Positions 12,826-40,756 of a DNA stretch of 64,000 nt are shown piece after piece. Positions within the stretch are counted from its first letter, which is position 1, and every line of letters begins with the position of its first letter. The notes beneath the pieces are model-generated. The model made no database searches. It had not been told where the DNA came from and worked only from the letters and a program-made list of their open reading frames with translations. The translations under genes and the position numbers were made by a program. The DNA is from an uncultured bacterium (GTDB lineage Bacteria > Verrucomicrobiota > Kiritimatiellia > CAIKKV01 > CALHGX01), in assembly GCA_938031185.1 (NCBI GenBank), contig CALHGX010000024.1:13187-77186 (forward strand). The letters run 5' to 3'.

Positions 12826-12841
12826 TGGCATAGTAGCTGCT
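12826..12841 (+). promoter_or_regulatory. sigma-54 (-24/-12) type promoter candidate upstream of pilB
   Basis: TGGCATagtagCTGCT. The GG and GC dinucleotides are at the canonical spacing of TGGCAC-N5-TTGCW. Intergenic, 40 nt before the pilB GTG. The core is identical to the sites at 17455 and 27545. Confidence 0.55.
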
Positions 12842-12881
12842 GAAAGAAACGTTACCGCCTGAAGCGGAGCGTAAACAAGCC

Positions 12882-14609
12882 GTGCCGTCTTCTTCGTCAA
12901 TTCTTTCGTCATCGGCCAAAATACCCGAAATCCTCCTTCGGCGGGGCGCCATTAAACCCCAAGCCCTTGAGGAGGCACAAGAACACGCCCAGGCTGCATC
13001 CATGCGCTTGGAGAAGTATCTGGTGTCCAACCGTCTCGTGTCCCCCGACGAGATGACGCTGGCCTTGTCCGAGTATGTGCAAATGCCGCCGGTTTCACTC
13101 GCGCATTTCACCCTCAATCACGAACTGATCGAACGGGTGCCGCGAGACACACTGACGAAACACATGGCTATTCCGCTTGGGCGCGTAGGAAAAACGCTGA
13201 CCGTCGCCCTTGGCGATCCGTTCGACATTATGGCCTTGGACGAGTTGCATGCCGTGACGGGATTGGAAATTGTGCCGCTGGTGGCCTCCGAGAAAGACGT
13301 TCAAGAAGCGCTCGGACGTCTGGCCGCCCAGGACAACCTGGGCCTCGATCTGGAAGACGTTATGCGAACCTCGGACAGCGAGGTTGAAGTGGACCACGCG
13401 CAGGATTCGGAAGAGAGCCTCGAGGAAATGCTCGAGAGCGCCGAGGGCGCACCGGTCATCCGGATGGTGAATATTATCCTGGTGGAGGCGCTTCGCAGCC
13501 GGGCGAGCGATATCCATCTCGAACCGCAAGAAAGAACCTTCCGCCTCCGTTACCGCGTGGACGGCGATTTGATCGAGCGCCCCAATCCGCCCAAGAGCTA
13601 TCAGGCCGCCATCACATCACGCATCAAAATCATGGCGGATTTGGATATCGCCGAGCGCCGCGTGCCGCAGGACGGCCGGTTCAAGATTCGCGCGCTGGGA
13701 AAGGAAGTGGATATTCGCGTGAGCATTTTGCCCACCGTGCATGGCGAAAAAGTCGTCATGCGCGTGCTGGACAAGGCCTCGTTGGCGCCCAATCTCGCCG
13801 CATTGGGGCTGGACACGGTGGCTCATGAGGCCTTGAGCTACGCCATTGCCCAGCCACACGGCATCATCCTGGTGACGGGACCGACCGGCAGCGGCAAGAC
13901 CACCACGCTGTATTCCTGTCTTCAGGAGCTTAATCGGCCCGATGTGAACATCGTGACTTGCGAAGACCCGGTCGAATATCAGCTGCCCGGCATCAACCAG
14001 GTGCAGGTGCGCACAGAAGTTGGCTTGTCATTCGCCGCGGCCCTGCGCTCCATTCTGCGGCAAGACCCGGACATCGTGCTCGTCGGGGAAATACGGGACA
14101 GCGAGACAGCGGAAATCGCGGTCAAGGCCGCGCTGACCGGCCACTTGGTGCTAAGCACTCTGCATACCAACGATGCCGCAGGCGCAGTGACCCGCATGAT
14201 TGATATGGGCATCGAGCCCTTCCTGCTGGCCTCTTCGCTCATTCTGGCCCAGGCGCAGCGTCTTTATCGAAAACTGTGCATGGCTTGCCGCAAGGAAACG
14301 ACGTTGTCGCCAGAAATCCTCAAGCAAAACCGGATTGATCCCAATTTTTTCGGCCCGGCCGTTATTTATCGGGCGGTGGGTTGCCCGAAATGCAACAACA
14401 CCGGCTACCGCGGACGAGGCGCTATCATGGAAGTGCTGCCGGTGGACGACGATATCCGCACGGAAATACTGCGCGGCGCCAGCAGCAGCCAGATTCGCGA
14501 GAAGGCGCAGCAGCACGGAATGGTCACGCTCAAGGAAGCAGGCCTGATCAAGGTGCGGGAAGGCGTCACCTCGCTGGATGCGGCGCTGGAAGTCACGGGT
14601 GGCGAATAA
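12882..14609 (+). CDS. pilB: type IV pilus / T2SS assembly ATPase (PilB/GspE family)
   Basis: 575-aa ORF (GTG start) with a GspE-N-like N-terminal domain, Walker A GPTGSGKTT, Asp/His boxes and a C-terminal CxxC...CPKC tetracysteine motif. Confidence 0.9.
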   Translation: MPSSSSILSSSAKIPEILLRRGAIKPQALEEAQEHAQAASMRLEKYLVSNRLVSPDEMTLALSEYVQMPPVSLAHFTLNHELIERVPRDTLTKHMAIPLGRVGKTLTVALGDPFDIMALDELHAVTGLEIVPLVASEKDVQEALGRLAAQDNLGLDLEDVMRTSDSEVEVDHAQDSEESLEEMLESAEGAPVIRMVNIILVEALRSRASDIHLEPQERTFRLRYRVDGDLIERPNPPKSYQAAITSRIKIMADLDIAERRVPQDGRFKIRALGKEVDIRVSILPTVHGEKVVMRVLDKASLAPNLAALGLDTVAHEALSYAIAQPHGIILVTGPTGSGKTTTLYSCLQELNRPDVNIVTCEDPVEYQLPGINQVQVRTEVGLSFAAALRSILRQDPDIVLVGEIRDSETAEIAVKAALTGHLVLSTLHTNDAAGAVTRMIDMGIEPFLLASSLILAQAQRLYRKLCMACRKETTLSPEILKQNRIDPNFFGPAVIYRAVGCPKCNNTGYRGRGAIMEVLPVDDDIRTEILRGASSSQIREKAQQHGMVTLKEAGLIKVREGVTSLDAALEVTGGE

Positions 14610-14628
14610 GCAAGGAGTGGACCGGTAT

Positions 14629-15807
14629 ATGAGCCCCGTTATGCGACCGTCCGGCGGCACGTCATCCGCCAAGAGCGCACCGGTCACCAAGCCCGCAACA
14701 ACTCGGGGACGAACAAATCTTGGAACCCGTGGCCGTCCTGGCGGCCGTGTGCGCGTTCGCGGCGCGCGCCGGATCGTCGCCCGCGATCTGCCCACGTTTT
14801 CCCGGCAGATGGCCGCAATGCTTTCGGCCGGCATGTCCATCGTCGCCGCCATTGAGACGCTGGAGGAACAAGCCGCCACTCCGAGTTTCCGCATGGTCCT
14901 TGGCGAAATCCGCCGCAGCATCGAGAACGGCGCGGCCTTCTCCGAGGCGCTGGAGCCCATCCCCGAAGTCTTCGACGAGCTGTACGTTAACATGGTCCGA
15001 AGCGGCGAACGCAGCGGGCAATTTGCCGAGACCATGCAGCGAATCAGCGAACTGCTCGAAGCCAACGCCAAGCTGCGTCGAAAGGTGCGATCGGCCATGA
15101 CGTACCCTATCGTCGTACTGTCGCTGGCGCTGGTTATCGCCACCGGGATGATTCTTTTTATTGTGCCGGTGTTTTCCCAGATGTACGAGGATTTCGGCGG
15201 CGCGTTGCCCGGCCCGACGCAGTTCCTTGTCAACCTCAGCCATGGCGCCAAGAAATATGGCCTTTTCGTCCTGCCAACCATCGTGGCGGCTGTCTACTTG
15301 TTCAATCGGTGGCGCAAGACCGACAACGGCGCGTTGGTGATGGATCGCTTTTACTTGCGCGCGCCCGTCGTGGGCGTGTTGGTTCAGAAAGTCGCCATCG
15401 CCCGTTTCTCGCGCACACTGGGTCAACTCGTGAAGAGCGGCGTCCCGATTCTGTCCGCGCTGGAAATAGTCTCCAAGGCCTGCGGCAACCGGGTCATCGG
15501 CGCGGCCATCATGGCGGCGCGGACCGGGGTCGAACGCGGCGATCCAATTTCGGCGGGGTTGGCGGGCAAGGACTGTATTCCTTCCATCTTGGTTCGAATG
15601 CTCGCGGCTGGAGAAAAAACCGGCAAGATTGATGACATGCTGGAGAATATCGCCGACACCTTTGATGACGAAGTGGAGGCCATGCTGGCCTCTCTAACCT
15701 CCATGATCGAGCCCATGTTGATGGTGCTGCTGGGGGTCATCATCGGCAGTATCGTCGTTTGCATGTTCCTGCCGATCTTCAAGATGGGCGAATTGGTTTC
15801 TTCCTGA
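14629..15807 (+). CDS. pilC: type IV pilus / T2SS inner-membrane platform protein (PilC/GspF family)
   Basis: ORF 14578..15807. Start moved to ATG 14629 after aaggag, downstream of the pilB stop. Two GspF repeats are present (FSRQMAAMLSAGMSIV..., FSRTLGQLVKSGVPIL...) with 3 TM segments. Confidence 0.9.
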   Translation: MSPVMRPSGGTSSAKSAPVTKPATTRGRTNLGTRGRPGGRVRVRGARRIVARDLPTFSRQMAAMLSAGMSIVAAIETLEEQAATPSFRMVLGEIRRSIENGAAFSEALEPIPEVFDELYVNMVRSGERSGQFAETMQRISELLEANAKLRRKVRSAMTYPIVVLSLALVIATGMILFIVPVFSQMYEDFGGALPGPTQFLVNLSHGAKKYGLFVLPTIVAAVYLFNRWRKTDNGALVMDRFYLRAPVVGVLVQKVAIARFSRTLGQLVKSGVPILSALEIVSKACGNRVIGAAIMAARTGVERGDPISAGLAGKDCIPSILVRMLAAGEKTGKIDDMLENIADTFDDEVEAMLASLTSMIEPMLMVLLGVIIGSIVVCMFLPIFKMGELVSS

Positions 15808-15832
15808 AGCGGCTGTCATCACGACAGCCGCT
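15808..15832 (+). terminator. stem-loop immediately after pilC (possible intrinsic terminator/attenuator)
   Basis: Perfect 10-bp stem agcggctgtc / gacagccgct with loop atcac. Only a short ttt follows after ccgggg, so the U-tract is weak. Confidence 0.35.
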
Positions 15833-15924
15833 CCGGGGTTTCGATCGGGCGAAAAGGTCTGCGCCCACAGTATTCATCATCCCGTATCCGCCTTCTGGCG
15901 ATTTTTCAAAAACGAGAATTCTTG

Positions 15925-15953
15925 TTGCACTGCCCCCCTAGGTGTCGTATAAA
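15925..15953 (+). promoter_or_regulatory. sigma-70-like promoter candidate for the response-regulator gene
   Basis: TTGCAC-N17-TATAAA, about 25 nt upstream of the ATG at 15978. Confidence 0.35.
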
Positions 15954-15977
15954 TGAAACTTGAAGGGGATGGTCTCA

Positions 15978-17348
15978 ATGGCGACGCGCATATTGCTGGT
16001 GGACGACGAGCCGCGCATTCTGAGTCTGCTCAATAGTCTCTTGAAAAGAGAAAACTATGAGGTGACGTCCATGCAGGACGCCGCCAAGGCCATTGAGTTG
16101 ATTCGCTCGGACTCGTTCGATCTGCTGATATCTGACGTGCGCATGAGCCCGGTGGATGGCATGGAACTGCTCAAGGCCGCCCGGCAAAGTCAGCCGTCCA
16201 TGTCGGTCATCATGTTGACCGCCTACGGCACCGTCGAGACCGCGATCGAGGCGATGAAACTCGGCGCCTTCGATTATGTGACCAAGCCGTTCAAGGTGGA
16301 CGAGCTCCTTCTGACCATCCAGCGGGCCGTGGAATACGGCCGCGCGCTGTCGGAAAACGTGGATTTGAAGGCCGAGCTCATAGGCCGATACAGCTTCGAG
16401 AACATTGTGGCCGAGAGCGCGGCCATGCGCAACGTCTGCGAGATGATCAAGCGGGTGGCGCCGACGGACACGACCGTGCTGATTTCGGGCGAAAGCGGCA
16501 CGGGCAAGGAATTGGTGGCCCGCGCCATTCACACGCACAGCCGGCGGCGGGACAAGCGTTTCGTGGCCGTCAATTGCGCGGCCCTGCCCGAACCGCTGCT
16601 GGAATCGGAGATGTTCGGACACGTGAAGGGGGCGTTCACCGGCGCCAGCGCAAACAAGGAAGGCTTGTTCGAGACGGCGCACGGCGGCACGCTTTTTCTC
16701 GACGAGATTTCGTCCATGCCGATGAGCATTCAGGGCAAGCTGCTGCGCGTGCTGCAGGAAAAGGAAATCCGGCGCGTCGGCGGCACGAGCAACATCGCAG
16801 TGGACGTGCGGGTTCTGGCCGCAACGAACACCAATTTGGAGAACCTGATCAAGGAAGACCTGTTCCGCGAAGACCTTTACTACCGCCTCAGCGTCATCCC
16901 GATCGAAATCAAGCCGCTGCGCGAACGGCGTGAAGACATCATCCCCCTTGTCTTCCGCACCCTCCGCAACGAGATTGGCGAGGGGCGCGAAATGCCGCGG
17001 CTGACTCCGGAAACTCGGGCTGCTTTGGAGGAATATCCGTGGCCCGGCAACGTTCGCGAACTGGAAAATGCCATCAAGCACGCCATCACCTTCGCGCAGG
17101 ACGGCCGCATTACTCTCGAAGTTTTGCCGCCCAAAATTGCCGCCAAGGCTCACGGCGCGGCCCGACCAGCTGGAGAAAAGAACACAGACAGTGGTCGGGC
17201 AAAATCTCTCAAGGCCTTCTTGAGGGAGAAAGAGCGGGAATACTTGGAACAGGTACTCTCGGCAGCCGATGGAGACAAGGAAAAGGCAGCGCAGGCCCTC
17301 AAGATCAGCTTGGCCACCCTTTACCGCAAACTGCCGCCGAACTCATGA
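15978..17348 (+). CDS. sigma-54-dependent response regulator (NtrC family enhancer-binding protein, PilR-like)
   Basis: ORF 15960..17348. The ATG at 15978 is preferred (aagggga lies 8 nt upstream). It has a receiver domain (ILLVDDE...DLLISDVRMSPVDG), an AAA+ core (GESGTGKELVARAIH), an intact GAFTGA loop (GHVKGAFTGA) and a C-terminal Fis-type HTH (KEKAAQALKISLATLYRKL). Confidence 0.9.
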   Translation: MATRILLVDDEPRILSLLNSLLKRENYEVTSMQDAAKAIELIRSDSFDLLISDVRMSPVDGMELLKAARQSQPSMSVIMLTAYGTVETAIEAMKLGAFDYVTKPFKVDELLLTIQRAVEYGRALSENVDLKAELIGRYSFENIVAESAAMRNVCEMIKRVAPTDTTVLISGESGTGKELVARAIHTHSRRRDKRFVAVNCAALPEPLLESEMFGHVKGAFTGASANKEGLFETAHGGTLFLDEISSMPMSIQGKLLRVLQEKEIRRVGGTSNIAVDVRVLAATNTNLENLIKEDLFREDLYYRLSVIPIEIKPLRERREDIIPLVFRTLRNEIGEGREMPRLTPETRAALEEYPWPGNVRELENAIKHAITFAQDGRITLEVLPPKIAAKAHGAARPAGEKNTDSGRAKSLKAFLREKEREYLEQVLSAADGDKEKAAQALKISLATLYRKLPPNS

Positions 17349-17454
17349 CCTTCTTTCGCAAAAACAAGAACTCAAGGATGACGCCAAGACGTTTTTCCCC
17401 TCGATTGACTGTCCATTTTTTGCTATTGCCGTCCCGTACGGTTGAATTGCCGCT

Positions 17455-17470
17455 TGGCATGCAGTCTGCT
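17455..17470 (+). promoter_or_regulatory. sigma-54 (-24/-12) type promoter candidate upstream of the major pilin
   Basis: TGGCATgcagtCTGCT in a lower-GC intergenic region, 81 nt before the pilin ATG. Canonical GG/GC spacing. Confidence 0.65.
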
Positions 17471-17551
17471 TTACGTGGAATGTGGGCGTCGTTGCGGCGG
17501 GTGCCGGAACGATGTTTTACCCGCAGTAGAGAAGAAAAAAAGGAGATGAAG

Positions 17552-17923
17552 ATGAAGAAGAGAACGAGATTGGGGTTCACGCTGGTTGAGATCATGATCG
17601 TGGTGGCCATCATCGGATTGCTGGCCGCGATCGCGATCCCCGGGTTCCTGAAAAACCGCCAGTTGTCGCAGAAGAACGCCTGCATCAACAACCTGCGAAT
17701 GATTGACGCGGCCAAGGAACAGTGGGCCATGGAAAAAGGCAAGAGCACCGGCGATGTCGTGGTGACCACGGAAGTGGACGAGTACATCAAAGGCCGTACT
17801 ACGCCGAGATGCCCTATCGGCAATACCAGCGCCAACTACACGTACAACGTGATCGGAGTCAGTCCCGCATGCAGCCAGACTGCCGCAGGACATGTGCTGC
17901 CTATCACGGAGACGACAACCTGA
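17552..17923 (+). CDS. prepilin-type N-terminal cleavage/methylation protein, probable major pilin
   Basis: Inside ORF 17039..17923. The ATG at 17552 lies 6 nt after aggag. The leader MKKRTRLG|FTLVEIMIVVAIIGLLAAIAIPGF has Gly-1 and Glu+5. The ACINNLRMIDAAKEQWAMEKG motif is common in PVC pilin-like proteins. It is followed by a strong terminator. Confidence 0.85.
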   Translation: MKKRTRLGFTLVEIMIVVAIIGLLAAIAIPGFLKNRQLSQKNACINNLRMIDAAKEQWAMEKGKSTGDVVVTTEVDEYIKGRTTPRCPIGNTSANYTYNVIGVSPACSQTAAGHVLPITETTT

Positions 17924-17941
17924 AGCCGACTGCTCGACGCG

Positions 17942-17978
17942 GACCCCCGGAAATGAAATTCCGGGGGTCTCTTTTTTG
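17942..17978 (+). terminator. rho-independent terminator after the pilin gene
   Basis: 11-bp GC-rich stem gacccccggaa / ttccgggggtc, 6-nt loop, then tcttttttg. Confidence 0.8.
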
Positions 17979-18031
17979 CGGTGCAGAGCGTTTGTCTCAC
18001 GCCGTCATGTCCCTCAACGCCTCGCTCCGCT

Positions 18032-20182
18032 CTATGGAGTGTCTTCTGAGGTCGGAGCGGGGCCGATTCTGACCGGCTGCCGGTGACGGTACATCTCCAG
18101 CCGTGCACGGATGTGATCAGAAGAGAACGAAGTTCGTTCCGCCGGCGCCAGGGCTTCCATGCCCTCCTTGCGCTCCGTCATGATCGCTCGGCCCGCCTCG
18201 GCATCTTCACTCTTCCGCGCTTCGTGTTCCTCCGCCAGGGCCAAGGCGCGCTGGGCGCAAAGCTCGGCCTCCTCGAATTGGCCCATTTCGGCATAAGCCG
18301 CCGCCAAAACATCCAACGCTCGTACGCTGCCATCGCCTGCGGCTTTGGATGCCGCTTCGGCCAATCGCACCGCTCGAGCGCCATCCCGCAAGCGCGAATC
18401 GGGGGCTGTCGCCAACAACCACGCCAACTCGCACAAGATGGCGGGGGCGTCCGGCAGAATGTCCACGGCACGTTCCAGGTGCAATTTCGCCGAAGCAGCA
18501 TCCCCCCGCTGAAGCAGAATGATTCCAACCATCGCATGGGCAGGTCCATGTTCTGGGTTGAGCGAAAGAATTCGTCTCCATTCTCTCAATGCTTCTTGCT
18601 GACGCCCTTGGGCATAGTATAGCCATGCCATATTGTGTCTCGTCTTGACATCATATGGTTCCAAACGCAGCCATGTTTGATATTCCCGAATCGCATCTTC
18701 ATGACGGCCGAGACCATGCCAGGCCAGGCCGAGGTTGTTTCGAGCATGGCCACAGTAAAAAAACGCTTTCGCCCTATGTCGATCCGAAAGCCATGCGACC
18801 AGCTCTTCACGGCTCATGCGTTCAAAAGGCGGCAGGCGTTTGAGCAGCATGCGAGCAACGACTGCCGCCTCGGAATAGCGGCGCTGCCCGAGCAAGCCGC
18901 TGGAGCAGCCAATGTAGGCGCGCGGGTTGTGCGGTTGTTTGGCCAGCACATCCGCCCACATGATGTCCGCCGAACGGTAGTCGCGATTTCGGCGGGCGGT
19001 CATGGCACCCAGCCCCGCTGTGGCCGTAAGGCATAGCGCCATACCGATGACGCCCGCCCTTCGCCCCGCCGTTTTCTCCAATGCGTAATGGACGGCCATC
19101 ACCGTTGCCGCCAGCACACAGGCCAGCGGCAAATACATCCGATGCTCAAACACCACATCCGGAATAGGCATGATGCTCGACGTGGGTGCCAAAATCACAA
19201 AAAACGCCGCGCCCAGGAACCCGTACGCACTGCGACGCCTCAGGGCAACCAAGCTGGATACCAAGAGCACCGCGATCAAGGCGCCGGATCCAGCCACGTC
19301 GCGCCAGGATTCAGCCGCCGGCCAGAAATAGTCGAGACACAGAGGATGCGGCACGTAAACCAAGCGCAGATAATGCCCAATAACCCCGAGTTGGGTTCGC
19401 GCATACACCAGCGGCGAATAAGATGTCACGGTCGCTTGGTATCCTGACCAATGCGTCCCAGCCGTAATCAGCACCAGCACCGCCATCACGCCCCACGTGA
19501 GGGCCAACGCCACGTGGACCAACCCCCTCTTCCGTAGAATTTCCCAAAAGGAATCACCGGAAAAAGTCCAATCGAGCAGCCACAGCACCACCGGCAGCGT
19601 CACCATGACTTCCTTGGTCCCCATCCCCACCATGGCGATGGCAATGGCGACATCAAACCAAAGACGCGGTCGGTCGCCTTTCAGCCCCCGCACGAAGGCG
19701 TACACCGCCGCCAGAAAGAAAAGCCCCATGAGAGACTCCTCGCGCTGCGCGATATACGTCACCGCTTGCGTCTGGAGGGGATGCGTCACCCATAGCAAGC
19801 CTATCGCCAACGCCAACCAGGGCGCCCGCGCGCGTTCCGCGTCGGATGCGGCGCGCACGAGCAGAAGGCGACGGGCAATCCCATAGAGAAAGAGCGCCGC
19901 CAGCGTATGAATCAGGATGTTGACGGCCCGATAATCGCTCACCGTCCATTTGCCGATGGCGTAGTTGATCGAGAAGGTGACGTAGGCCACCCACCGCGTG
20001 GCCGTCACGACGCAAGCCCAGGGGGGCCAGAGCCGATGGATTCGAGGATTGGCCGTAATGACCGTTGCATCGTCGAAAAGGAATTCTCCTTGAAAACTGT
20101 TGGCATAGGCCAGAACCGCCGCCGCGATCAGCAGCAAAGGAAACCATCGGGTCAGACGCTTCATCGCTTCTTCTCCGGTCAT
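18032..20182 (-). CDS. TMTC-like GT-C membrane glycosyltransferase with C-terminal TPR domain (paralog 1)
   Basis: ORF 18032..20191. Starts are possible at GTG 20191 (GTGA overlap), ATG 20182 (8 nt after gggagg) or ATG 20164. It has about 11-12 TM segments. The first-loop motif FQGEFLFDDATVITANPRI carries the acidic DD (20069..20074), as in TMTC/PMT-type GT-C enzymes. The C-terminal ~250 aa are TPR repeats. Confidence 0.7.
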   Translation of the reverse strand: MTGEEAMKRLTRWFPLLLIAAAVLAYANSFQGEFLFDDATVITANPRIHRLWPPWACVVTATRWVAYVTFSINYAIGKWTVSDYRAVNILIHTLAALFLYGIARRLLLVRAASDAERARAPWLALAIGLLWVTHPLQTQAVTYIAQREESLMGLFFLAAVYAFVRGLKGDRPRLWFDVAIAIAMVGMGTKEVMVTLPVVLWLLDWTFSGDSFWEILRKRGLVHVALALTWGVMAVLVLITAGTHWSGYQATVTSYSPLVYARTQLGVIGHYLRLVYVPHPLCLDYFWPAAESWRDVAGSGALIAVLLVSSLVALRRRSAYGFLGAAFFVILAPTSSIMPIPDVVFEHRMYLPLACVLAATVMAVHYALEKTAGRRAGVIGMALCLTATAGLGAMTARRNRDYRSADIMWADVLAKQPHNPRAYIGCSSGLLGQRRYSEAAVVARMLLKRLPPFERMSREELVAWLSDRHRAKAFFYCGHARNNLGLAWHGLGRHEDAIREYQTWLRLEPYDVKTRHNMAWLYYAQGRQQEALREWRRILSLNPEHGPAHAMVGIILLQRGDAASAKLHLERAVDILPDAPAILCELAWLLATAPDSRLRDGARAVRLAEAASKAAGDGSVRALDVLAAAYAEMGQFEEAELCAQRALALAEEHEARKSEDAEAGRAIMTERKEGMEALAPAERTSFSSDHIRARLEMYRHRQPVRIGPAPTSEDTP

Positions 20183-20187
20183 GAATC

Positions 20188-21837
20188 TCACCTCCCGCCC
20201 TCCACGCCGTCCTCGGCGGTCGCCAACATCCTCAACGCCCGCTGCAACTTGTTCGAGACGTTGACAGAATCCGGCTGCAGGCTCAAGGCCGCCAAGTAAT
20301 CCTGAATCCCGGCCGCCGGATCGCCCTTGCTCACGCGCAGCAACCCCCGATTCGCATACGCTCTAAACAAATTGGCCTCCGACGTGTTGCTGCGCAAGAC
20401 CTCAGGCGGCTGGCGGGAATGAAAAGACGATTCCCGAAGCTGCCTCTGCGCTCGGCGAATGACCTCCCTGTATTGTGCTTCCGCCTCCTCCACGCGCCCC
20501 TGCTCTGATAGCGCAATAGCCCACTCGTTCCGGGCCCGCAGATTGTCCGGTCGAACCTCAACCGTGACGCGCCACATGCGTTCTTCAGAAGAGTAATCCT
20601 GATTGCGCAGCCACGTTCGAACCGCCAAAGCGGCAATCAAGGAAGCCCAGAAGACGCCCAGTACCAGCCGCCGCACGCACGGCCCGCCCTTCAACCGTTG
20701 GACGACCGCCGCGCTGCCGACGACACTCAAGACCACCGGCCCGGCGAGGGGCAGGTACATCCGATGCTCAAAAGCCAGATCGGCCACCGGCAACACACTG
20801 GAGCTCGGCGCCAGCGCCACCCAGAACCACAGCGCGGGATAGCTCCACATCTTGCAGCGCCAACACAGCCAAGCCGTCCCGACCATCGCCGCCACCGTCA
20901 CCAATGCCCCCGCGTCCACTTCGCTCAAGCGCTGTGCCGGCGGCCACGCATAATCCAAACAAAGGACGTCCGGCCATACCGTCAAACGGAGGTAACGGGC
21001 CACCACCTCCAACTGCGTCACGGTGTACTGAAAAGATGTGACGCCGGCTTGCCAAAACGCGGCGCCCGCTGCGGCGTATTGCCGAATTCCGCCGCCCATG
21101 ACCCCAGATGGATCGGGCGTCAGAACGACCAGCGCCGCCAAGAAGAGCCAGGCGGAAGCCAAACCAACGTACAGCCCTTTTCTCCTTCCTAACGCCTCCC
21201 CAAAAGAGGAGGCAACAAACGCTCGATCGTGCAGCAGCACAAGCGGCAGAATGACGACGGCGGTTTCCTTGGTCATGGCGCCGGCCCACGCCGCCGCGGT
21301 TGCGAGCAACCACCACCGCCTGGGCCGAATCGCTCGATAACTGCGGATCACCGCATAGAGGGCCAGAAGCACGAGCAGCCCTGCGGCGGTCTCCGCGCGT
21401 TGCACAACGTAGGTCACGCTCTCCGTCTGGAGGGGATGAACGGCCCATGCGGCGGCTGCGAGACCGCCGAGTTGTTTACCGTCCTCGTCGCAAAACTCAA
21501 GGTGATCTCTAAGCGTTCGACGGACAATGCCAAAAAGTAGCAAGGCCGCGCCCGCATGAATCACAATATTCACAGCCCGATACCCTCCCGGATTCAGACC
21601 GCCCATCCGGTAATTTACCGCAAAGGACCATTGCACCAGCCCTCGTGTAAGCGGCTGAAAAACATCCCGCAACGGCCATAAGGACCGGATACGGATGTTT
21701 TCGACAATCGAGCCGTAATCGTCGAAGAGGAACACTCCGAAAAGGGCGTTGGAATAGGCCAACGCCACCGCCGCGAGCGTCAAGAGCCACGGTGCCGCGT
21801 CTCGAAGCCTCTTGCTCGATTTGGAGCCATCCCCCAC
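20188..21837 (-). CDS. TMTC-like GT-C membrane glycosyltransferase with C-terminal TPR domain (paralog 2)
   Basis: ORF 20188..21975. The ATG at 21975 would overlap the divergent GT2 gene, so GTG 21837 (aggga upstream) is preferred. The N-terminus aligns with paralog 1: KRLRDAAPWLLTLAAVALAYSNALFGVFLFDDYGSIVENIRI versus KRLTRWFPLLLIAAAVLAYANSFQGEFLFDDATVITANPRI. The TPR tail is shorter. Confidence 0.65.
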   Translation of the reverse strand: MGDGSKSSKRLRDAAPWLLTLAAVALAYSNALFGVFLFDDYGSIVENIRIRSLWPLRDVFQPLTRGLVQWSFAVNYRMGGLNPGGYRAVNIVIHAGAALLLFGIVRRTLRDHLEFCDEDGKQLGGLAAAAWAVHPLQTESVTYVVQRAETAAGLLVLLALYAVIRSYRAIRPRRWWLLATAAAWAGAMTKETAVVILPLVLLHDRAFVASSFGEALGRRKGLYVGLASAWLFLAALVVLTPDPSGVMGGGIRQYAAAGAAFWQAGVTSFQYTVTQLEVVARYLRLTVWPDVLCLDYAWPPAQRLSEVDAGALVTVAAMVGTAWLCWRCKMWSYPALWFWVALAPSSSVLPVADLAFEHRMYLPLAGPVVLSVVGSAAVVQRLKGGPCVRRLVLGVFWASLIAALAVRTWLRNQDYSSEERMWRVTVEVRPDNLRARNEWAIALSEQGRVEEAEAQYREVIRRAQRQLRESSFHSRQPPEVLRSNTSEANLFRAYANRGLLRVSKGDPAAGIQDYLAALSLQPDSVNVSNKLQRALRMLATAEDGVEGGR

Positions 21838-21953
21838 CGAGCAACGATCCCTGAAACCGGACTTATTTTTTGCTCTGTTCTCCACTCTTTTGGAATGATA
21901 AGAAGAACCACGGAGGATGTAAAACCACTTCCCTACGAAGGGAGGCGTGCCAT

Positions 21954-22721
21954 ATGATCGGCAACCAATCCGCACCCCGCGTCTTGGTGATTGTGCCGGC
22001 GCACAACGAGGCCCCTCGTATTGCAGCCGTCGTGTGCGGCGTGCGGATGGCGCTGCCGGCTGCCGACATCGCCGTCATCAACGACGCCTCCACCGACGAA
22101 ACCGCCGCCCAGGCTCGTGAGGTCGGCGCATTGGTCTTGCCACATCCGGTCAACCTTGGCTATGGGGCCGCCCTCGAAACAGGCTACCTGCACGCCTTGG
22201 AGTCCGGATACAATTACGTGCTCCAGATGGACGGCGATGGGCAGCACCTGGCAGAGGAACTCCCAAAGTTGTTGGCGCCACTGGCCGCCGGCGAGGCGGA
22301 CCTGGTGATCGGATCCCGCTACCTGGCTGGCGGCCAATATCGGGCGCCGCTCCCGCGACGCATGGGACAGCTGTTCTTTCGCGCACTGGTCTGGCTCCTG
22401 ACGCGTCGGCGGCTGACCGACCCAACCTCCGGCTTCCAAGGCTTGAACCGCGACGCTCTGCGCTTCATGGTCAGCGGCATTTTTCCGCCGGATTACCCGG
22501 ACGCGGACGTCTTGACCATGACGGCCAAGGCCGGATTGCGCCTCATGGAAGTCCCCGTTCGAATGGCCACCCGCGAGGGGGGCGTGTCCATGCACTCCGG
22601 GTTGAAGCCGCTCTATTACATGATGAAGATGCTGTTGGCTTTGTTTGTTGTCTGGCTCAGCCGCGCCCGCTGGGCGCAGTGGCGCAGCGAACACCCGAGG
22701 GCCGTTCAGGGGGGACCATGA
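21954..22721 (+). CDS. family 2 glycosyltransferase, polyprenyl-phosphate sugar synthase-like (Dpm1/GtrB/ArnC type)
   Basis: ORF 21870..22721. The ATG at 21954 lies 8 nt after gggagg. Motifs: VLVIVPAHNEAPRI, NDASTDET, and MDGDGQH as the DxD-type motif. Confidence 0.85.
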   Translation: MIGNQSAPRVLVIVPAHNEAPRIAAVVCGVRMALPAADIAVINDASTDETAAQAREVGALVLPHPVNLGYGAALETGYLHALESGYNYVLQMDGDGQHLAEELPKLLAPLAAGEADLVIGSRYLAGGQYRAPLPRRMGQLFFRALVWLLTRRRLTDPTSGFQGLNRDALRFMVSGIFPPDYPDADVLTMTAKAGLRLMEVPVRMATREGGVSMHSGLKPLYYMMKMLLALFVVWLSRARWAQWRSEHPRAVQGGP

Positions 22722-22722
22722 T

Positions 22723-23178
22723 ATGTTCCTACTTCCACGCCAGCTCTACGCTTCCATCCTGATCGGGTTGTCCATTCTGGCGCTGATCATCCGGCTGGTG
22801 CAGAAGGGCCGGCTGGACATCGCCTATTGCTGGCTATGGCTGGGCATCGGGTTCGGCATGGTGCTGGCTGTGGCTCGATACGACTGGCTGCTGCGGCTGT
22901 CGGACTTGATCGGCTCGCGCACCCCCACGACCACGGTTTTCCTGCTGGGCTTTGTCGTCGTGCTCCTGCTCTGCCTGCAATACTCGCTGGTCATTTCCGC
23001 CCACCGGCGACAAATACGCCGTCTGGCCCAGCGCATTGCCATGCTGCAAGCAGAGGGCCAACAGCGTCGCGTCGAGCCCACACCAAGCCGGTTACGGCCA
23101 TCCGCTATGACGGATTCGCCGGCGAGGCCCGCCAATTCGGAAGGTTCCGAAGCGTCTCCAGGAACCGGCCCGCGTTAA
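22723..23178 (+). CDS. small membrane protein, DUF2304-like (GT2-associated)
   Basis: ORF 22645..23178. The ATG at 22723 lies 1 nt after the GT2 stop. It has three or four hydrophobic helices followed by a basic RRQIRRLAQRIAMLQ helix. This small-membrane-partner arrangement is typical next to GT2 genes. The 3' end overlaps the convergent GT4 gene by 74 nt. Confidence 0.55.
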   Translation: MFLLPRQLYASILIGLSILALIIRLVQKGRLDIAYCWLWLGIGFGMVLAVARYDWLLRLSDLIGSRTPTTTVFLLGFVVVLLLCLQYSLVISAHRRQIRRLAQRIAMLQAEGQQRRVEPTPSRLRPSAMTDSPARPANSEGSEASPGTGPR

Positions 23179-24364
23179 TTTCCAAAGCGCAGTGCCGCGC
23201 ATACCAGGCGGCATTCCGCCTGCGCGCCTCGGCCAGACGCCCGGGATCGGCCTGCAACTCACGGATATACGAGACCAGCCCTTCCACATCGCCGGGCCTG
23301 ATCTCCCGTCCCTCGACATCGTCCCTCACGATGCGGGACAAGTCGCTCTCCGAAGCCTGCACCAGCGCCACCGGCGTGCCGACTTTGAGATACCCATAAA
23401 TCTTCCCGGGCGCGATGATTCCTTCCATGCCGGGCTCGAGCGCCACAAAGCCCAGGCTCGCGGCCGACAGCGACTCGGAGAATCGGTCCGGCGGCACATA
23501 ATCGAGCACCCGTGCGTTGCTCAGTCGCTCCCGGCCAATGCGTTCCTCCAAGGCCCGCCGTTTGGGGCCGTGCCCGGCCAGAATAAACAACACGCGCGGA
23601 TCGGTTTTCGCAAGAACCGACGCGGCATCCAGCAGGGTGTCGAACGTGTGAACCAATCCCATGTTGCCCGAATAGTGCACAACAAATCGGCCCGCCAAAC
23701 ATTGCTCCGCAAGAAAACGGTTGCCGGACTCCGGCACGTAATGAATTTCTTCCGGCACCCAGTTATGCACTTCAACCAACTTGTCCCGCGAAACCCCCGT
23801 GGCCTCTATGCGGCGAGACATGCACGGCCCCAGCGTGAAGATTTTCGTGCACTCCCGATAGCCGGCGCGCGCCAGCATACTCGCGGTGCGGTGCGCAAAA
23901 CCGCCCCTCCGAATCAGACCGGTTTCGACAAGCACCTCCGGATAGAGGTCCATGGCCCAAAGCAGCAGCGGCACATGGCGCATGCGGGCCGCCCACCCGA
24001 GAAGAACATAGAGCAACGGCGGGGAAGTGATGCAGAGGACGGCGCGGGGACGCATCCTGGCCGCCAGGGCCAGTGCCTTGGCCCCAAACGACACCGCGTG
24101 GCCCAGATAGCTTGACGGAGTCACGCGGCGCGCGGCGGGGGCCTTCACGCGGCGCACCGTCACGCCATGATGCGTGTCGCGCGGCGGCAGGCGCATATCC
24201 GCGGCTGAATACATCCGGTCAGATGTCACCACCGCCACGCGCAAGCCTTTTGCCGCGAGATACGGAAGAAGGCTGTTGAAAGATTGACAGTGCCCGGTGG
24301 TCTCCGGGTGATAGTACGGCAAAACAACCAACACGTCGCAACCGGATCCCATGCGTCGCATCAT
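23105..24364 (-). CDS. GT-B fold family 4 glycosyltransferase (WcaI/WbuB-like)
   Basis: ORF 23105..24541. The start is probably at the ATG cluster 24352..24364 (MMRRMGSGCDVLVVLPYYHPETTG). The N-terminal PYYxPExxG motif and the C-terminal EPGMEGIIAPGKIYGYL region are GT4-like. Confidence 0.8.
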   Translation of the reverse strand: MMRRMGSGCDVLVVLPYYHPETTGHCQSFNSLLPYLAAKGLRVAVVTSDRMYSAADMRLPPRDTHHGVTVRRVKAPAARRVTPSSYLGHAVSFGAKALALAARMRPRAVLCITSPPLLYVLLGWAARMRHVPLLLWAMDLYPEVLVETGLIRRGGFAHRTASMLARAGYRECTKIFTLGPCMSRRIEATGVSRDKLVEVHNWVPEEIHYVPESGNRFLAEQCLAGRFVVHYSGNMGLVHTFDTLLDAASVLAKTDPRVLFILAGHGPKRRALEERIGRERLSNARVLDYVPPDRFSESLSAASLGFVALEPGMEGIIAPGKIYGYLKVGTPVALVQASESDLSRIVRDDVEGREIRPGDVEGLVSYIRELQADPGRLAEARRRNAAWYARHCALEINAGRFLETLRNLPNWRASPANPS

Positions 24365-24539
24365 AGGAATCGCAGCCCCCCCTCTCAACAGCAAAACCAA
24401 GGCGACGCTGCAGCCGGCATCGCGACGCCAGCGGGCCGGAAGTCGGTCTTGGCTTCGATCGGCACACCCGTGCATAATGACGGGAGGGGCGTCGTAAGAT
24501 CGCCCGTCAACAGGCCCGCCATACGGGTTGCGACAGCGC

Positions 24540-25979
24540 ATGAAAACAAAATTGGCCCTGGTTTCCGCCCCCGTCAGCCTGGAGGAACGCTACGGCGCCC
24601 TGGCGGGTGCCGCCAGCACCGAACCGTCTTTTGCGTTGGTCATGCTGGCCGCTGTGGCTTTGCGGGAAGACGCCGAGGTCCGCATCATCGAGGCGTCCGC
24701 CCGGAATCTCACGGTTGAGGAAACCGTGGATGAGATTCGATCTTTCGCCCCGGATATCGTGGGACTCACTGCCACAACCGTCGGCATTCGCGCGGCCGGC
24801 GAAGTGGCAGCCTGGATCAAAGCCGTCAACCCGAACACCCTGATTCTGGTAGGCGGCTGTCACATCAGCGCGTTGCCCATCGAAACCATGTCCGCCTTCC
24901 CCGCGTTCGATCTGGGCGTCTTGGGCGAGGGCGAACTGACCTTGACCGAGATCCTTCGCCACCATCGGCATGATCCGGTCCAACCTGTGGGGCTCGCGGG
25001 CACGGTCGAAAGGACCACCGATGAGATTCGCGTCAACCCGCCTCGCCCGCTGATCGGCAATCTCGATGAGCTACCGCTGCCCGCTTGGCATCTGCTGCCC
25101 GGCTTTCCAAAGTCCTTTCGTCCGTCGCCAGCCCGGATCAAGCGTTGGCCGTGCGCCTCGGTGGTACTGACGCGAGGGTGCCCGAACCGCTGCACGTTCT
25201 GCGACCGTTCCGTCTTCGGAAACCGCTGCCGGGGCTACAGCCCCTCTTATGCCGTGGAATTGCTAAAGGACCTGCGCACACGCTATGGCGTGCGGGAGGT
25301 GTTGATCGAGGACGATACGTTTGTCATCCGCCGCGACACGATGCAGGAGTTCTGCGAGCGGCTGATTTCCGAACGTGTGGACGTGACCTGGTCCTGTCTC
25401 GGGCGGGCCGATCGCGTCACGCCCGAATTGCTCCGCCTCATGAAGAAGGCCGGCTGCTGGCACGTGTCTTTCGGCGTCGAGAGCGGGGATCCTGAGATTC
25501 TGCGGTCCGTCAACAAGCGGCTGGATGTGGAGGAAATCCGGGAGGCGGTATCCTGGTGCAGGGACGCGGGGCTGATGACCAAGGGCTTTTTCATGATCGG
25601 GTTTCCGGGCGAAACGCGAGATTCCATCGAGGCGACCCGCCAATTGGCCTGCGCCCTGCCGCTGGACGACATCAGCGTCATGCAATTGACGCCCTTCCCC
25701 GGCAGCGACCTTTACAAGACCGCCCGCCAATTCGGAACCTTCGAAGAAGACTGGAGTCGGATGAACGCCCTGAACACCGTCTTCATCCCCAAGGGGTTCA
25801 CGCGGGAAGAACTGGACGAGGCGCGCGCCCGCATGCTCCGCTCGTTCTACCTGCGCCCTCGTGTGCTGGCTCGATATGCTTGGCGGCTGTTGCTCCGCCC
25901 CCGGCTTGGCTTGAGACTCCTGCCGGCTTTTTCCGCCTTCCTCCGCAGCGCATTTCCGACGCGTTCCCGCCTCTCCTGA
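24540..25979 (+). CDS. B12-binding domain radical SAM enzyme (class B)
   Basis: ORF 24528..25979. Start at ATG 24540 (MKTKLALVSAP). The N-terminus is Rossmann-like and cobalamin-binding-like (IVGLTATTVGIRAA...LVGGCHISALP). The radical SAM cluster motif CPNRCTFC is present. Confidence 0.85.
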   Translation: MKTKLALVSAPVSLEERYGALAGAASTEPSFALVMLAAVALREDAEVRIIEASARNLTVEETVDEIRSFAPDIVGLTATTVGIRAAGEVAAWIKAVNPNTLILVGGCHISALPIETMSAFPAFDLGVLGEGELTLTEILRHHRHDPVQPVGLAGTVERTTDEIRVNPPRPLIGNLDELPLPAWHLLPGFPKSFRPSPARIKRWPCASVVLTRGCPNRCTFCDRSVFGNRCRGYSPSYAVELLKDLRTRYGVREVLIEDDTFVIRRDTMQEFCERLISERVDVTWSCLGRADRVTPELLRLMKKAGCWHVSFGVESGDPEILRSVNKRLDVEEIREAVSWCRDAGLMTKGFFMIGFPGETRDSIEATRQLACALPLDDISVMQLTPFPGSDLYKTARQFGTFEEDWSRMNALNTVFIPKGFTREELDEARARMLRSFYLRPRVLARYAWRLLLRPRLGLRLLPAFSAFLRSAFPTRSRLS

Positions 25980-26033
25980 ACTGCGCCAGAACACACTCGT
26001 ATATTCCCCGTCAGCGGCCGCACTCGTCCGGAA

Positions 26034-27182
26034 TCAGATCATCAGGATGCGGGACTGATTTTCGTCCGCCTGTTCGTCGCCTCTGGGATAAGCTTGCGTG
26101 CGGTACTCCGTCATCTCGTTCAGCTTGTGAAGCATGCACCGCAACGATTCCGCCGATTCGAGACAGGCGTCGAGCAATTCCCGTGTGACGGACGGATCCT
26201 TGCCGTGGCTGCGCTGCAGCATCTCGAGGCTGACCAGAATCACGGTCGCCGGCTGCCCGAGGTGGTGGCATGCGGCGCCGAGACTTTCCACCATCACCCG
26301 CTGCCGCTCCGCCTGCAGCTCGGCCTCCTCCGCGCGAATCCGGTCGCGGATATCCACGAACGACAGCACCATCCCCGCCACCGCGTCGTCCGCGTCTCGG
26401 TTGCAGTCGGCCGACACCTGCGCCTTGACTTCGACTCCGTCGGGCCGCCGCAAGGTCATCAGCCCGCTCCAGGATTGGCCCGCCGTCACGGCAAGGAACA
26501 TTTCTTCCGCCCGCTCCGATTCCATGAAAAGGGATCGTACATCCTTACCCAACATGGATCGCTCATCTTCCACGGCCCACAGCCGGCCGGCCGCCGGATT
26601 GGCAAACGTAATGCAGCCTTGCAGGTCGGTAATGGCAATCCCCGTGCCGGCGTTGCGAATGGCCAGATGCACAGCCCGCAGCATTTCCTCCGCCTGCCGA
26701 CGCAGCGTGATGTCACGCACAAAGAAGCAAAACATGGCCGTGGCATTGATCTGCAAACGGTTGACGGCGATCTCCGCAGGAAAGAAGCTTCCGTCCCGAC
26801 GCCGACAGTGCGCCTGAATCAAAATGAACCGGTCATGCTCCAGGTTCTCATTCAGCGTACGGATGGTCTCTTCGTCGGCGCCGGATATCACGTCTGGAAC
26901 GCCCAACTGCCGCAGCGTCTCCCGATCATACTGAAAGAACTCCGTGGCGCGTATGTTCCCATCCAGGATCCGGCCGCGCAGGTCTGTGACTATCGCGCCG
27001 TCATACACGCTCTGAAAGAGCTGCTGGAAACTCGATTCGCCGATCGGACCGTGTGCGCGAGATGCATCGGCATTCTTTCCCTCGCCACCGACCGCAGGAG
27101 CCGCGTGTCCGCTGTCCGTCTTTCTCAGATTCGGGGGGATGTCAATCCGCATTGTCTGCGACAGTCTGTCTCGCGCAGTCAT
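26034..27182 (-). CDS. tandem-PAS sensor protein ending in a DHp (HisKA-like) helix pair, with no ATPase domain
   Basis: ORF 26034..27272. Start at ATG 27182. There are two PAS-like modules (FQQLFQSVYDGAIVTDLRGRILDGN..., LAIRNAGTGIAITDLQGCITFANP...). The H-box-like LGAACHHLGQPATVILVSLEML lies at about 26240..26290. Only about 70 aa follow it, and no N/G1/G2 boxes are present. Confidence 0.7.
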   Translation of the reverse strand: MTARDRLSQTMRIDIPPNLRKTDSGHAAPAVGGEGKNADASRAHGPIGESSFQQLFQSVYDGAIVTDLRGRILDGNIRATEFFQYDRETLRQLGVPDVISGADEETIRTLNENLEHDRFILIQAHCRRRDGSFFPAEIAVNRLQINATAMFCFFVRDITLRRQAEEMLRAVHLAIRNAGTGIAITDLQGCITFANPAAGRLWAVEDERSMLGKDVRSLFMESERAEEMFLAVTAGQSWSGLMTLRRPDGVEVKAQVSADCNRDADDAVAGMVLSFVDIRDRIRAEEAELQAERQRVMVESLGAACHHLGQPATVILVSLEMLQRSHGKDPSVTRELLDACLESAESLRCMLHKLNEMTEYRTQAYPRGDEQADENQSRILMI

Positions 27183-27544
27183 CTCGTCCAATCCGTCCTT
27201 TCGTGCGCAATTTGTTTTTGCAGCAGAAAGTGTGCCTCGTTTGCATTTCGCTGAAAAATGCCGTTTTATCAACGCAACGCCACGTCGGCGGCCTCACCGG
27301 AACACCGCTCGCGCAATGTCCGAAGGCCTTCTGACGCCTTGATCGCCTTTCACGAGGGGATTGCATCTCTCACGCCACCCTGATTCCATTTTCATTCGTG
27401 AAAAAACTTGCCTGAAACGGGCCGGCGCGCCTCCCCGCTGTGGCCGCCTGTGATCTTTTTTTCGCTTGACGACCGGCACAAGGGGAAACGGCACCCCCAT
27501 GGGACTGCGCGTTTGGCGAAAGCTTGCACCGAATGAGCGCTTAT

Positions 27545-27560
27545 TGGCATTGTACCTGCT
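27545..27560 (+). promoter_or_regulatory. sigma-54 (-24/-12) type promoter candidate upstream of the minor-pilin operon
   Basis: TGGCATtgtacCTGCT at the end of a 390-bp intergenic region. Only 12 nt separate it from the ATG at 27573. Confidence 0.5.
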
Positions 27561-27572
27561 GTAGATTAGGGT

Positions 27573-27989
27573 ATGATGAACAAGACCAACCGAAGCGGGA
27601 TGACGCTGGTGGAGGTTACGGTCGCTTTGGCCATTCTGGCTTTCGTGCTGGGCGGCATCTATCAACTGATCGTCCAGGCCGGACGGCTGGGGCGGCTGGC
27701 GCGCGATCATTATGTCGCGGTGATCCTCGCCCAGAACCGCATTGAACGAGCGAAGGTTTTCGACTACCGAGACTTGCGCCTGCTCGCGGAAACCAATGTG
27801 CTGATGAACGCCAACGGCGCGCCGGACCTCGAAGGCCGATTCCGGCGCACGACAAGTATCAACACGAACTTCGCGCCCAATCTCACCGAAGTGGTTTGCA
27901 CCGTGGAAATCAAGGATTGGCGTACCGCCCAGTTTGCGGGTGAAGGGGAGCGCGTGGCCTCCCTCTTTACGCGGTATCTGGAACCATGA
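27573..27989 (+). CDS. prepilin-type minor pilin / pseudopilin (PilV/GspI-like size)
   Basis: 138 aa. Leader MMNKTNRSG|MTLVEVTVALAILAFVLGG with Gly-1 and Glu+5. Confidence 0.8.
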   Translation: MMNKTNRSGMTLVEVTVALAILAFVLGGIYQLIVQAGRLGRLARDHYVAVILAQNRIERAKVFDYRDLRLLAETNVLMNANGAPDLEGRFRRTTSINTNFAPNLTEVVCTVEIKDWRTAQFAGEGERVASLFTRYLEP

Positions 27990-30100: not shown

Positions 30101-30114
30101 AGGGGGAGCGCAAC

Positions 30115-31287: not shown

Positions 31288-31453
31288 GCCGTTTTCACGG
31301 CGTGGCGCCGGCGGTTGTGGAGGCCGTGGAGGTTCATTCTTTGTGGCGTTGCGTTTTGAAAAGAGACCAGGTAGTATCGCGCCGAATGGGGTAAGGCTTT
31401 GAGTTCGCATTCCCCCGCGTGTTGATCCGACTTGAGGCCAGGTAGGGCAAGAA

Positions 31454-32488: not shown

Positions 32489-33105
32489 GCGTGCGCGTCA
32501 ATCTTATTCTGGATTCCGAGATCCGCAGCGGACAACCCGTATGGGTCACGGGGCTGATCAAGGCCCTGCCCTTCGCGGCGCTGACCGTTTTCGCGCTGGG
32601 CGCTCTTTCTTTCTTCGGATCCTATACCGCGCTGCGCAGGGAAGTGGCCATTGCGAAAGAAGCCTGGCAGCAGACCGAGCCGAAGTACTTGGAAGCCGTG
32701 CGCTTGAAGGCCGGCATTGCGGTGGAACGCGAGGTGCTGCGAGAACTGAAGAGCTGGGGCAAGGCGCGGATCGAGTGGAGCAGCCAACTCGAAGAAATGG
32801 CGCGCCTTATGCCCGCCACCATCCAGCTTACGGAACTCATGATCATCCAGCGGTTGCAAATGGGACCCAAAGCGCCCGAGCGGGCCTTCGAGTTGCGGAT
32901 GTCGGGCAAAACCGGCGGGCTGCAACCAGAAGCCAATGTAACCGAATTTCAAAGCCTTTTCTTGATCCATCCGTTCTTCAATCAGACGGTTACGAACGCG
33001 GCGATTCCTGCCGGCTCCTTCAAACAGGATCCGTCGCGCAACGCCGCTCGGACCGATCGCGTCTTTGAACTGGTCGTCAAATACAGACCGCGCGCATTCG
33101 AATGA
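32485..33105 (+). CDS. pilN: PilN-like bitopic inner-membrane pilus alignment protein
   Basis: 206 aa with an ATGA overlap with pilM. It has a short cytoplasmic N-terminus (MSVRVNLILDSE), a single TM helix and a periplasmic coiled coil. Position and topology match PilN. Confidence 0.55.
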   Translation: MSVRVNLILDSEIRSGQPVWVTGLIKALPFAALTVFALGALSFFGSYTALRREVAIAKEAWQQTEPKYLEAVRLKAGIAVEREVLRELKSWGKARIEWSSQLEEMARLMPATIQLTELMIIQRLQMGPKAPERAFELRMSGKTGGLQPEANVTEFQSLFLIHPFFNQTVTNAAIPAGSFKQDPSRNAARTDRVFELVVKYRPRAFE

Positions 33106-34384: not shown

Positions 34385-34407
34385 AACGCTCAGAGAGGAA
34401 GCAAGTC

Positions 34408-35049: not shown

Positions 35050-35156
35050 GCGGCCGGCTCCAGTTTTCGTCCGGCTTCCGAACGAAGCACGAAAAAAGGT
35101 GTTTATCAGCAAGGCTGGCAAGAGCAGCGGCCTCAACGACAGGCTGTGGAGGGGGC

Positions 35157-40727: not shown

Positions 40728-40756
40728 CCGATTCTCCGAACATGGTATAGCGGATA

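Follow-up and report, generated by a model that had tools for sequence, protein, structure and literature searches.

Sigma-54-type promoter elements before several operons of a Kiritimatiellia pilus locus suggest a pilin switch that reaches most of the machine

Sigma-54 and PilR are classically known to control the pilin gene, as for pilA of Pseudomonas aeruginosa and in pilS-pilR-pilA of Myxococcus xanthus, and the type IV pilus locus treated here raises the question of how far beyond the pilin such a switch may reach. The locus lies in a 64-kb stretch (C24:13187-77186, hereafter the window) of the genome of an uncultured Kiritimatiellia bacterium, whose assembly comprises 2.47 Mb in 80 contigs with 62.5% G+C and is 89% complete. 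An earlier note on this DNA had picked out by eye three identical intergenic cores in front of pilB, the major pilin and the minor pilins, and had proposed a dedicated sigma-54 regulon covering the whole machine. We think it likely that these three cores, together with a fourth, are -24/-12 elements recognised by sigma-54 RNA polymerase, and that the PilR-type activator encoded in the locus itself is their likeliest driver. Judged from its sequence, the arrangement appears to be a well-known pilin switch whose reach has grown to take in most of the machine, with no new mechanism.

An exact search of the window for TGGCATNNNNNCTGCT (TGGCAT-N5-CTGCT) returned exactly three matches, all intergenic and on the + strand, in agreement with the places and distances read by eye. 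The earlier note had allowed that further copies might have been missed, and one related core was indeed found on the minus strand. The four sites are:

12826-12841, + strand: sigma-54 core TGGCATagtagCTGCT (exact match) before pilB-pilC and probably also the activator gene
17455-17470, + strand: sigma-54 core TGGCATgcagtCTGCT (exact match) before the major pilin, predicted start at about 17481
27545-27560, + strand: sigma-54 core TGGCATtgtacCTGCT (exact match) before the minor-pilin operon, predicted start at about 27571
27237-27222, - strand: fourth sigma-54 core AGGCACactttCTGCT (AGGCAC-N5-CTGCT), 39 nt before the ATG at 27182 of a PAS-PAS-HisKA gene

The three identical cores end 40 nt before the pilB GTG (12882), 81 nt before the pilin ATG (17552) and 12 nt before the minor-pilin ATG (27573). 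Each has 9 of the 11 consensus bases of TGGCAC-N5-TTGCW, with GG and GC exactly 10 nt apart. At the pilB site, the predicted start at about 12852 would leave a 30-nt leader that contains GGAG.

Could such matches be accidents, or stem from a dispersed repeat, and have nothing to do with transcription? In 100 dinucleotide-preserving shuffles of the window, searched on both strands, the exact pattern had a mean of 0.00 matches. The whole genome holds five exact matches against about 1.1 expected from base composition (4.94 Mb, both strands): three in the pilus locus, one intergenic at C20:35425 before a 420-aa HHH_3 (ComEA-like) gene, and one at C3:1447 within a signal-peptide coding region. This last match looks accidental, as the explanation by chance would have it, and is the one that chance is expected to supply; the other four are intergenic and face pilus-related genes, so that the motif, whose rarity the earlier note had wished to see checked, does not turn up widely away from promoter positions. 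Beyond the 11 shared bases, the pairwise identity of the three sites is 22-26%, the random level, which argues against an origin as copies of a mobile or repeated element and for constraint on the core only. The spacing is specific as well: genome-wide, the canonical register TGGCA-N7-TGC gives 121 matches, 10 of them well placed (intergenic and at most 300 nt from a same-strand gene), against 78-92 matches with 2-4 well placed for the wrong spacings N5, N6, N8 and N9 (for N6, 91 and 2). When the window was scanned from 7 to 46.5 kb with a simple weighted consensus score and a threshold, the matches at or above threshold were the three cores and the PAS-gene site only, four of four intergenic. 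The empty shuffles, the five genomic matches where about one is expected, the random flanks and the conservation at orthologous positions in dozens of genomes (see below) effectively refute an origin by chance or repetition, to which we give next to no credence.

The machinery that such promoters need is present. A full-length rpoN, the presence of which the earlier note had left to be checked, lies at C62 (Sigma54_DBD, 198.5 bits) and encodes 522 aa with region I and the RpoN box ARRTIAKYR. The near-consensus core TGGCACggttgCTGCG precedes glnA, a classical target, by 31 nt (C34:29450), which indicates that the organism uses the sigma-54 consensus in the ordinary way. Within the locus, the candidate activator is:

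15960-17348, + strand: PilR-like enhancer-binding protein; Pfam Response_reg, Sigma54_activat (248.8 bits) and HTH_8

Pfam agrees with the names that had been given to pilB, the pilin, the minor pilin and this activator, which has the receiver Asp in LLISDVRM, the previously noted GAFTGA loop in its AAA+ domain, and a Fis-type HTH. It falls below all NCBIfam equivalog cut-offs, and no PilR-specific curated model exists. Its nearest relatives outside the Planctomycetes-Verrucomicrobia-Chlamydiae (PVC) group are 44-48% identical and stand in pilB..pilC..PAS-kinase..activator clusters of Nitrospirota, Myxococcales and Bdellovibrio; going by gene order, this is the PilR arrangement.

In the mechanism that we propose, sigma-54 holoenzyme would bind each of the four -24/-12 sites as a closed complex, and transcription would start, about 11 nt after the GC, only once an AAA+ enhancer-binding protein had remodelled that complex. 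The likeliest activator would be the PilR-type receiver-AAA+-HTH protein encoded between pilC and the pilin gene; phosphorylation of the receiver domain would act as the switch, and the protein would bind TTYGCA-N4-TGMGAA dyads upstream of its targets. One signal would then co-induce pilB-pilC (probably with the activator), the pilin from its single-gene unit, the minor pilins, probably accompanied by pilMNO and the secretin, and the PAS sensor. We infer the transcription starts, the identity, among the genome's ten, of the activator at pilB and at the minor-pilin operon, the operon extents and the signal.

The fourth core adds a possible sensor to this set:

26034-27182, - strand: gene of a PAS-PAS-HisKA (DHp) sensor; Pfam PAS_9, PAS and HisKA, NCBIfam sensory_box and partial kinase matches

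This core is divergent from the minor-pilin promoter, an AAGGA ribosome site lies between it and the ATG at 27182, and minus-strand counterparts precede the PAS orthologues of two relatives (L033 and L068). Neither Pfam nor NCBIfam found HATPase_c in the protein, and its HisKA match is weak. No kinase gene adjoins that of the activator, the nearest sensor being this PAS-PAS-DHp protein, a candidate partner; lacking a detected ATP-binding domain, it leaves the receiver-type activator with no obvious complete kinase in the locus.

If the sites are promoters, they should recur before the same genes in relatives. We fetched 20 loci around PilB orthologues and 80 around relatives of the activator, and counted motifs in 43 Kiritimatiellia-level loci (594 kb) from 40 nt inside each start to 250 nt before it. 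The background density was 35 unassigned matches per 1.19 Mb of strand, or about 0.0085 per 290-nt window. PilB orthologues with 64-72% identity occur in nearly all of 40 order-level relatives. The motif stands upstream of the pilin in 21 of 27 relatives, at 44-180 nt, and upstream of pilB in 7 of 33 (L039, L041, L043, L045, L066, L068 and L069, at 10-112 nt), a count that rises to 9 with L070 and L073, whose motifs were seen by eye outside the counting window. It also precedes pilM in two of four relatives, in addition to five divergent promoters on the pilM side, the minor pilin in one of two, and the PAS gene in one of three (L033); the motif of L068 is present, its short PAS match having been left out of the count. 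In L033, the orthologous minor pilin has TGGCACagcatGTGCT with a normal 37-nt leader. As internal controls, the regions upstream of pilC (0/32) and of the activator gene (0/31) had no motif at all.

Taken together, 38 relatives' promoters give the consensus tTGGCACG-N4-CTGCTwwA, for which a Geobacter sigma-54 promoter, TTGGCACGGTTTTTGCT, served as a comparator (PMC2725144). Two positions that had not been scored, a T before TGG (31/38) and a G after TGGCAY (25/38), both fit the canonical consensus. Among the -12 forms of the clade, CTGCT is the commonest (18/38), and TGGCAT is the second commonest of the -24 forms (12/38), so that the two deviations from the consensus shared by the three sites are lineage-typical variants.

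These counts bear on a narrower account, in which only the pilin site works and the pilB and minor-pilin sites are weak, vestigial or silent, their operons being driven mainly by housekeeping-sigma promoters that escaped recognition. Motifs at pilB in just 7-9 of 33 relatives would fit such an account, as would two features described below, an upstream dyad that is strong at the pilin only and a 2-nt leader at the minor-pilin site that is awkward for translation. Moreover, in Xanthomonas oryzae GG-N10-GC was seen at the promoters of most pilus units, yet sigma-54 bound three only (PMC7170775). Set against this, the full 11-base core is kept at all three sites where none is expected, and the 7 counted pilB motifs compare with about 0.3 expected from the background density. 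The pilB motifs also recur in separate lineages (the f5 genomes, the L066-L069 group and L070/L073). Finally, a search for sigma-70-like promoters, with a consensus that may not fit PVC bacteria, yielded 4 in 19 kb where 4.9 were expected, all of them outside the three intergenic regions. On balance, we regard restriction to the pilin as unlikely.

Whether the locus activator is the protein that acts at these sites can be approached through its putative binding sites. Upstream of the relatives' pilin promoters we found a recurring dyad, TTYGCA-N4-TGMGAA, often in two copies about 22 nt apart. A matrix trained on 11 pilin-promoter sites from relatives only was run over the source genome. Two elements of the window matter here, neither assigned to a strand:

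17355-17370: candidate activator binding site TTCGCAAAAACAAGAA, 100 nt upstream of the pilin core and directly after the activator stop codon
27389-27404: 16-bp perfect palindrome TTTTCATTCGTGAAAA, halfway from the minor-pilin promoter (156 nt away) to the PAS promoter (152 nt away)

The site at 17355 scores 18.8 bits, joint first in the genome, where a maximum of at least 18 has a probability of about 0.0007 per 310-nt window. It shares first place with a dyad at C20:35213 (18.8 bits), 212 nt before the intergenic exact core at C20:35425, so that the two top matches both lie upstream of an exact TGGCAT-N5-CTGCT. The palindrome at 27389, a variant with TTTTCA instead of TTYGCA, reaches 12.5 bits (P about 0.01 per window); the minor-pilin promoter of L033 likewise has TTCTCAATATTGAGAA (TTCTCA-N4-TGAGAA) upstream. 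It is possible, on these sequences, that the palindrome is an activator site shared by the minor-pilin and PAS promoters. Upstream of pilB, the best dyad has only 2.3 bits, and the pilB promoters of relatives mostly have none either. As far as the dyads tell, the locus activator would be well linked to the pilin and plausibly to the minor-pilin/PAS pair, with the question open at pilB. An activator site common to all promoters was also considered (GCAAAAACAA, CGCAAAA.CAAG in the pilB, pilin and PAS regions) and is not claimed, the words having been chosen post hoc and the pilB copy scoring 2.3 bits.

The dyads of a second pilin gene were recorded alongside. This gene (155 aa, N-terminus GFTLMEIM; C33:599-1196) has its own core, TGGCACtgtacTTGCT, 114 nt upstream, with the dyad TTTGCACAATTGAGAG about 55-70 nt before that core; the dyad match at C33:545, before the second pilin's promoter, has 16.9 bits and ranks eighth in the genome.

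A sigma-54 core does not specify its activator, and all sites might be real sigma-54 promoters at which different enhancer-binding proteins drive pilB, the pilin and the minor-pilin operon, so that separate signals are integrated. Ten strong Sigma54_activat genes, the locus activator and nine others, would provide for this, and the absence of a dyad at pilB and the variant palindrome (TTTTCA) between the minor-pilin and PAS genes point the same way. Against it stand the synteny of the activator gene with pilB-pilC and the pilin in many relatives, the 6-4-6 architecture kept by both the 27389 palindrome and the TTCTCA-N4-TGAGAA of L033, and the frequent action of such activators on neighbouring promoters (PMC2725144). 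A division of the sites among several activators seems to us distinctly improbable, and a single PilR-type activator is preferred.

The geometry of the third site deserves separate treatment. Counting from the C of the GC at -12, transcription would start at about 27571, and the leader would be 2 nt long before the ATG at 27573. This start codon cannot be moved upstream past an in-frame TAG (27567-27569), and the leader peptide MMNKTNRSG is needed before the prepilin-type cleavage site, which lies between G and MTLVE; L033 has a similar leader, MKMNLKKG. The 12-nt distance is found once more in this genome, at C34:29711, and a 13-nt distance in L067, which makes three promoters with 12-13 nt in all among the sequences examined. 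As this stands, either the minor-pilin operon is translated from an almost leaderless mRNA, or the third site is not its main promoter. An order-wide search for the core followed by N{4,24} and ATG gave far more matches than the reversed control. In that search, start-like ATGs were in excess 4-8 nt past the -12 element, which is short of the canonical start site (for example TGGCAYGGGGCCTGCT, then 7 nt, then ATG, in several genomes); the A/T-rich composition of the sequence that follows the core may account for this.

How much of the machine the sites could cover depends on the transcription units, whose + strand genes other than the activator are:

12882-14609, + strand: pilB; Pfam T2SSE and MshEN
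14578-15807, + strand: pilC; Pfam T2SSF
17552-17923, + strand: major pilin, 123 aa; N_methyl domain, best NCBIfam match PilA_Myxo
27573-27989, + strand: minor pilin; N_methyl
27986-30100, + strand: 704-aa minor pilin
30115-31287, + strand: 390-aa open reading frame with an N-terminal hydrophobic helix (MNAIDYKRVRDGSALLTVAVVLGVLVIVV...) and no family match
31454-32488, + strand: pilM
32485-33105, + strand: pilN
33102-33761, + strand: pilO
33758-34384 and 34381-35049, + strand: two open reading frames
35157-40727, + strand: gene of a 1856-aa protein
40757-42583, + strand: PilQ-type secretin

The gap between pilC and the activator gene has neither a terminator nor a sigma-54 motif, and read-through from the pilB site would probably reach the activator and create positive feedback. 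A strong terminator follows the pilin (17941-17970), which makes the pilin its own transcription unit. From 27573 to 42583 all genes are co-directional, and no further sigma-54 motif occurs inside this block, in which the largest gap, 166 nt before pilM (31288-31453), holds a weak hairpin only. The site before the minor pilins would cover pilM to pilQ only if these 15 kb are one operon. The 390-aa open reading frame probably encodes a further component of the minor-pilin operon, PilX-like or associated with the tip.

The 5' untranslated region of the pilin, taken from the predicted start, forms a 5'-terminal hairpin (17481-17525; -26 kcal/mol, z -4.8) that does not occlude the ribosome site. 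Hairpins of other sequence stand in the same place in L067, L071, L073 and L074, and the element may stabilise the mRNA. A search of Rfam over 11-32 kb found no RNA family, with one sub-threshold chance match only.

Among further pilus-type genes, the GspE/PilB/PilT-family ATPases have 9 matches of at least 160 bits and 1 weak match in the 2.47-Mb genome, and the two of PilT type pass the curated cut-off. The 89%-complete assembly had no match to Peptidase_A24 (prepilin peptidase), which may be missing from the assembly.

Several of these observations count against placing all four sites under sigma-54 and the locus activator, and must be weighed together. The pilB promoter is, from the motif counts, lineage-restricted (7-9 of 33 relatives), and the missing pilB dyad, taken with ten activators in the genome, means that pilB may answer to another activator. 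At the third site, the 2-nt leader has no usable Shine-Dalgarno sequence; a leaderless geometry as a habit of the clade was considered and rejected, since the order-wide search showed no peak of ATGs at 12-13 nt. Farther downstream, pilM, the gene of the 1856-aa protein and the secretin gene have no promoter motif of their own and need read-through past the 166-nt gap. The two pilT homologues, both outside the locus, have no sigma-54 site nearby in the genome match list. Of the earlier proposal, the motifs at the pilB, pilin and minor-pilin genes stand, now joined by the one at the sensor gene; with no dyad at pilB and no site near pilT, its words "dedicated" and "whole machine" are only partly borne out. 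Even so, as already said, we hold it likely that the four sites are sigma-54 promoter elements with the locus activator as their driver.

The motif at C20 invites a bolder version. There, two sigma-54 cores face away from each other at a distance of about 100 nt (C20:35307-35440), TGGCATgcattCTGCT on the + strand before the 420-aa HHH_3/ComEA-like gene and TGGCACgattaCTGCT on the - strand before a gene for a 211-aa MglA/Arf-like GTPase. From its motifs, this pair may be part of the same pilus or DNA-uptake regulon. One could go further and suppose that a single PilR-type activator, through the dyad TTYGCA-N4-TGMGAA and with sigma-54, runs a complete Kiritimatiellia pilus-and-DNA-uptake regulon, in which a sigma-54 promoter is fused to the minor-pilin start codon and yields an essentially leaderless mRNA. 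It would take in the motor and the platform, two pilins, the minor pilins along with assembly proteins and secretin, the ATPase-less PAS-DHp sensor, the ComEA-like DNA receptor and the MglA-like polarity GTPase. To our knowledge, such a joining of promoter and start codon has not been described for enhancer-dependent promoters; we consider this wider reading rather unlikely.

Near-consensus cores were also recorded elsewhere in the genome: at C71:7506 (dnaK), C39:17959 (hsp20) and C20:33038 (an HU-like gene); at C68:8868 before a Csm1/HD (type III CRISPR) gene beside another activator; and at C34:29711 before the gene of an 889-aa PPDK_N protein, where the ATG follows the core by 12 nt, as at the third site. 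Sigma-54 control of chaperone and CRISPR genes would be unusual.

How does the locus compare with known systems? It resembles the PilS/PilR systems in having an NtrC-family receiver-AAA+-HTH activator gene beside the pilin gene, and a -24/-12 promoter about 60-90 nt before the pilin start with, here, a candidate activator site about 100 nt further up; sigma-54/PilR control of the pilin has been described for pilR-pilA of Geobacter sulfurreducens (PMC2725144). It differs from them in that the same core also stands before pilB-pilC, the minor-pilin/assembly block and the sensor gene. Moreover, where PilS is an adjacent six-helix membrane kinase, here a presumably soluble PAS-PAS-DHp sensor with no detected ATP-binding domain lies 9 kb off, across a glycosylation island.

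A closer parallel is the RpoN2-PilRX system of Xanthomonas oryzae, where sigma-54 acts on several pilus units beyond the pilin: in X. oryzae pv. oryzae, RpoN2 binds directly at the pilA, pilC and pilR promoters, and 13 pilus transcription units are affected (PMC7170775). Multi-operon sigma-54 control having been published there, the idea is not new. That system was established by experiments, whereas ours is known from sequence alone and belongs to a different phylum (Kiritimatiellia, PVC group). It also differs in its near-consensus motifs with 11 identical bases and in that a single unit holds the minor pilins and, in all likelihood, pilMNO and the secretin as well. More generally, sigma-54 has been tied to the cell exterior, flagella and pili (Francke et al. 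2011, PMC3162934). The pilus genes, the second pilin, the ComEA-like gene and glnA as candidate targets conform to this link, whereas the candidate targets dnaK and hsp20 are not typical of it. A text search of that paper (PMC3162934) did not find 'Verrucomicrobia' or 'Planctomycetes', and a literature search found no paper on the regulation of Kiritimatiellia pili.

In summary, for a phylum in which genetics has hardly begun, this work offers predicted promoters together with a candidate binding site for an activator. The proteobacterial pilin switch would in this group reach further, to the motor, to the minor pilins and probably the assembly proteins, and to a sensor, which suggests that pilus production may be an all-or-none, signal-gated programme.

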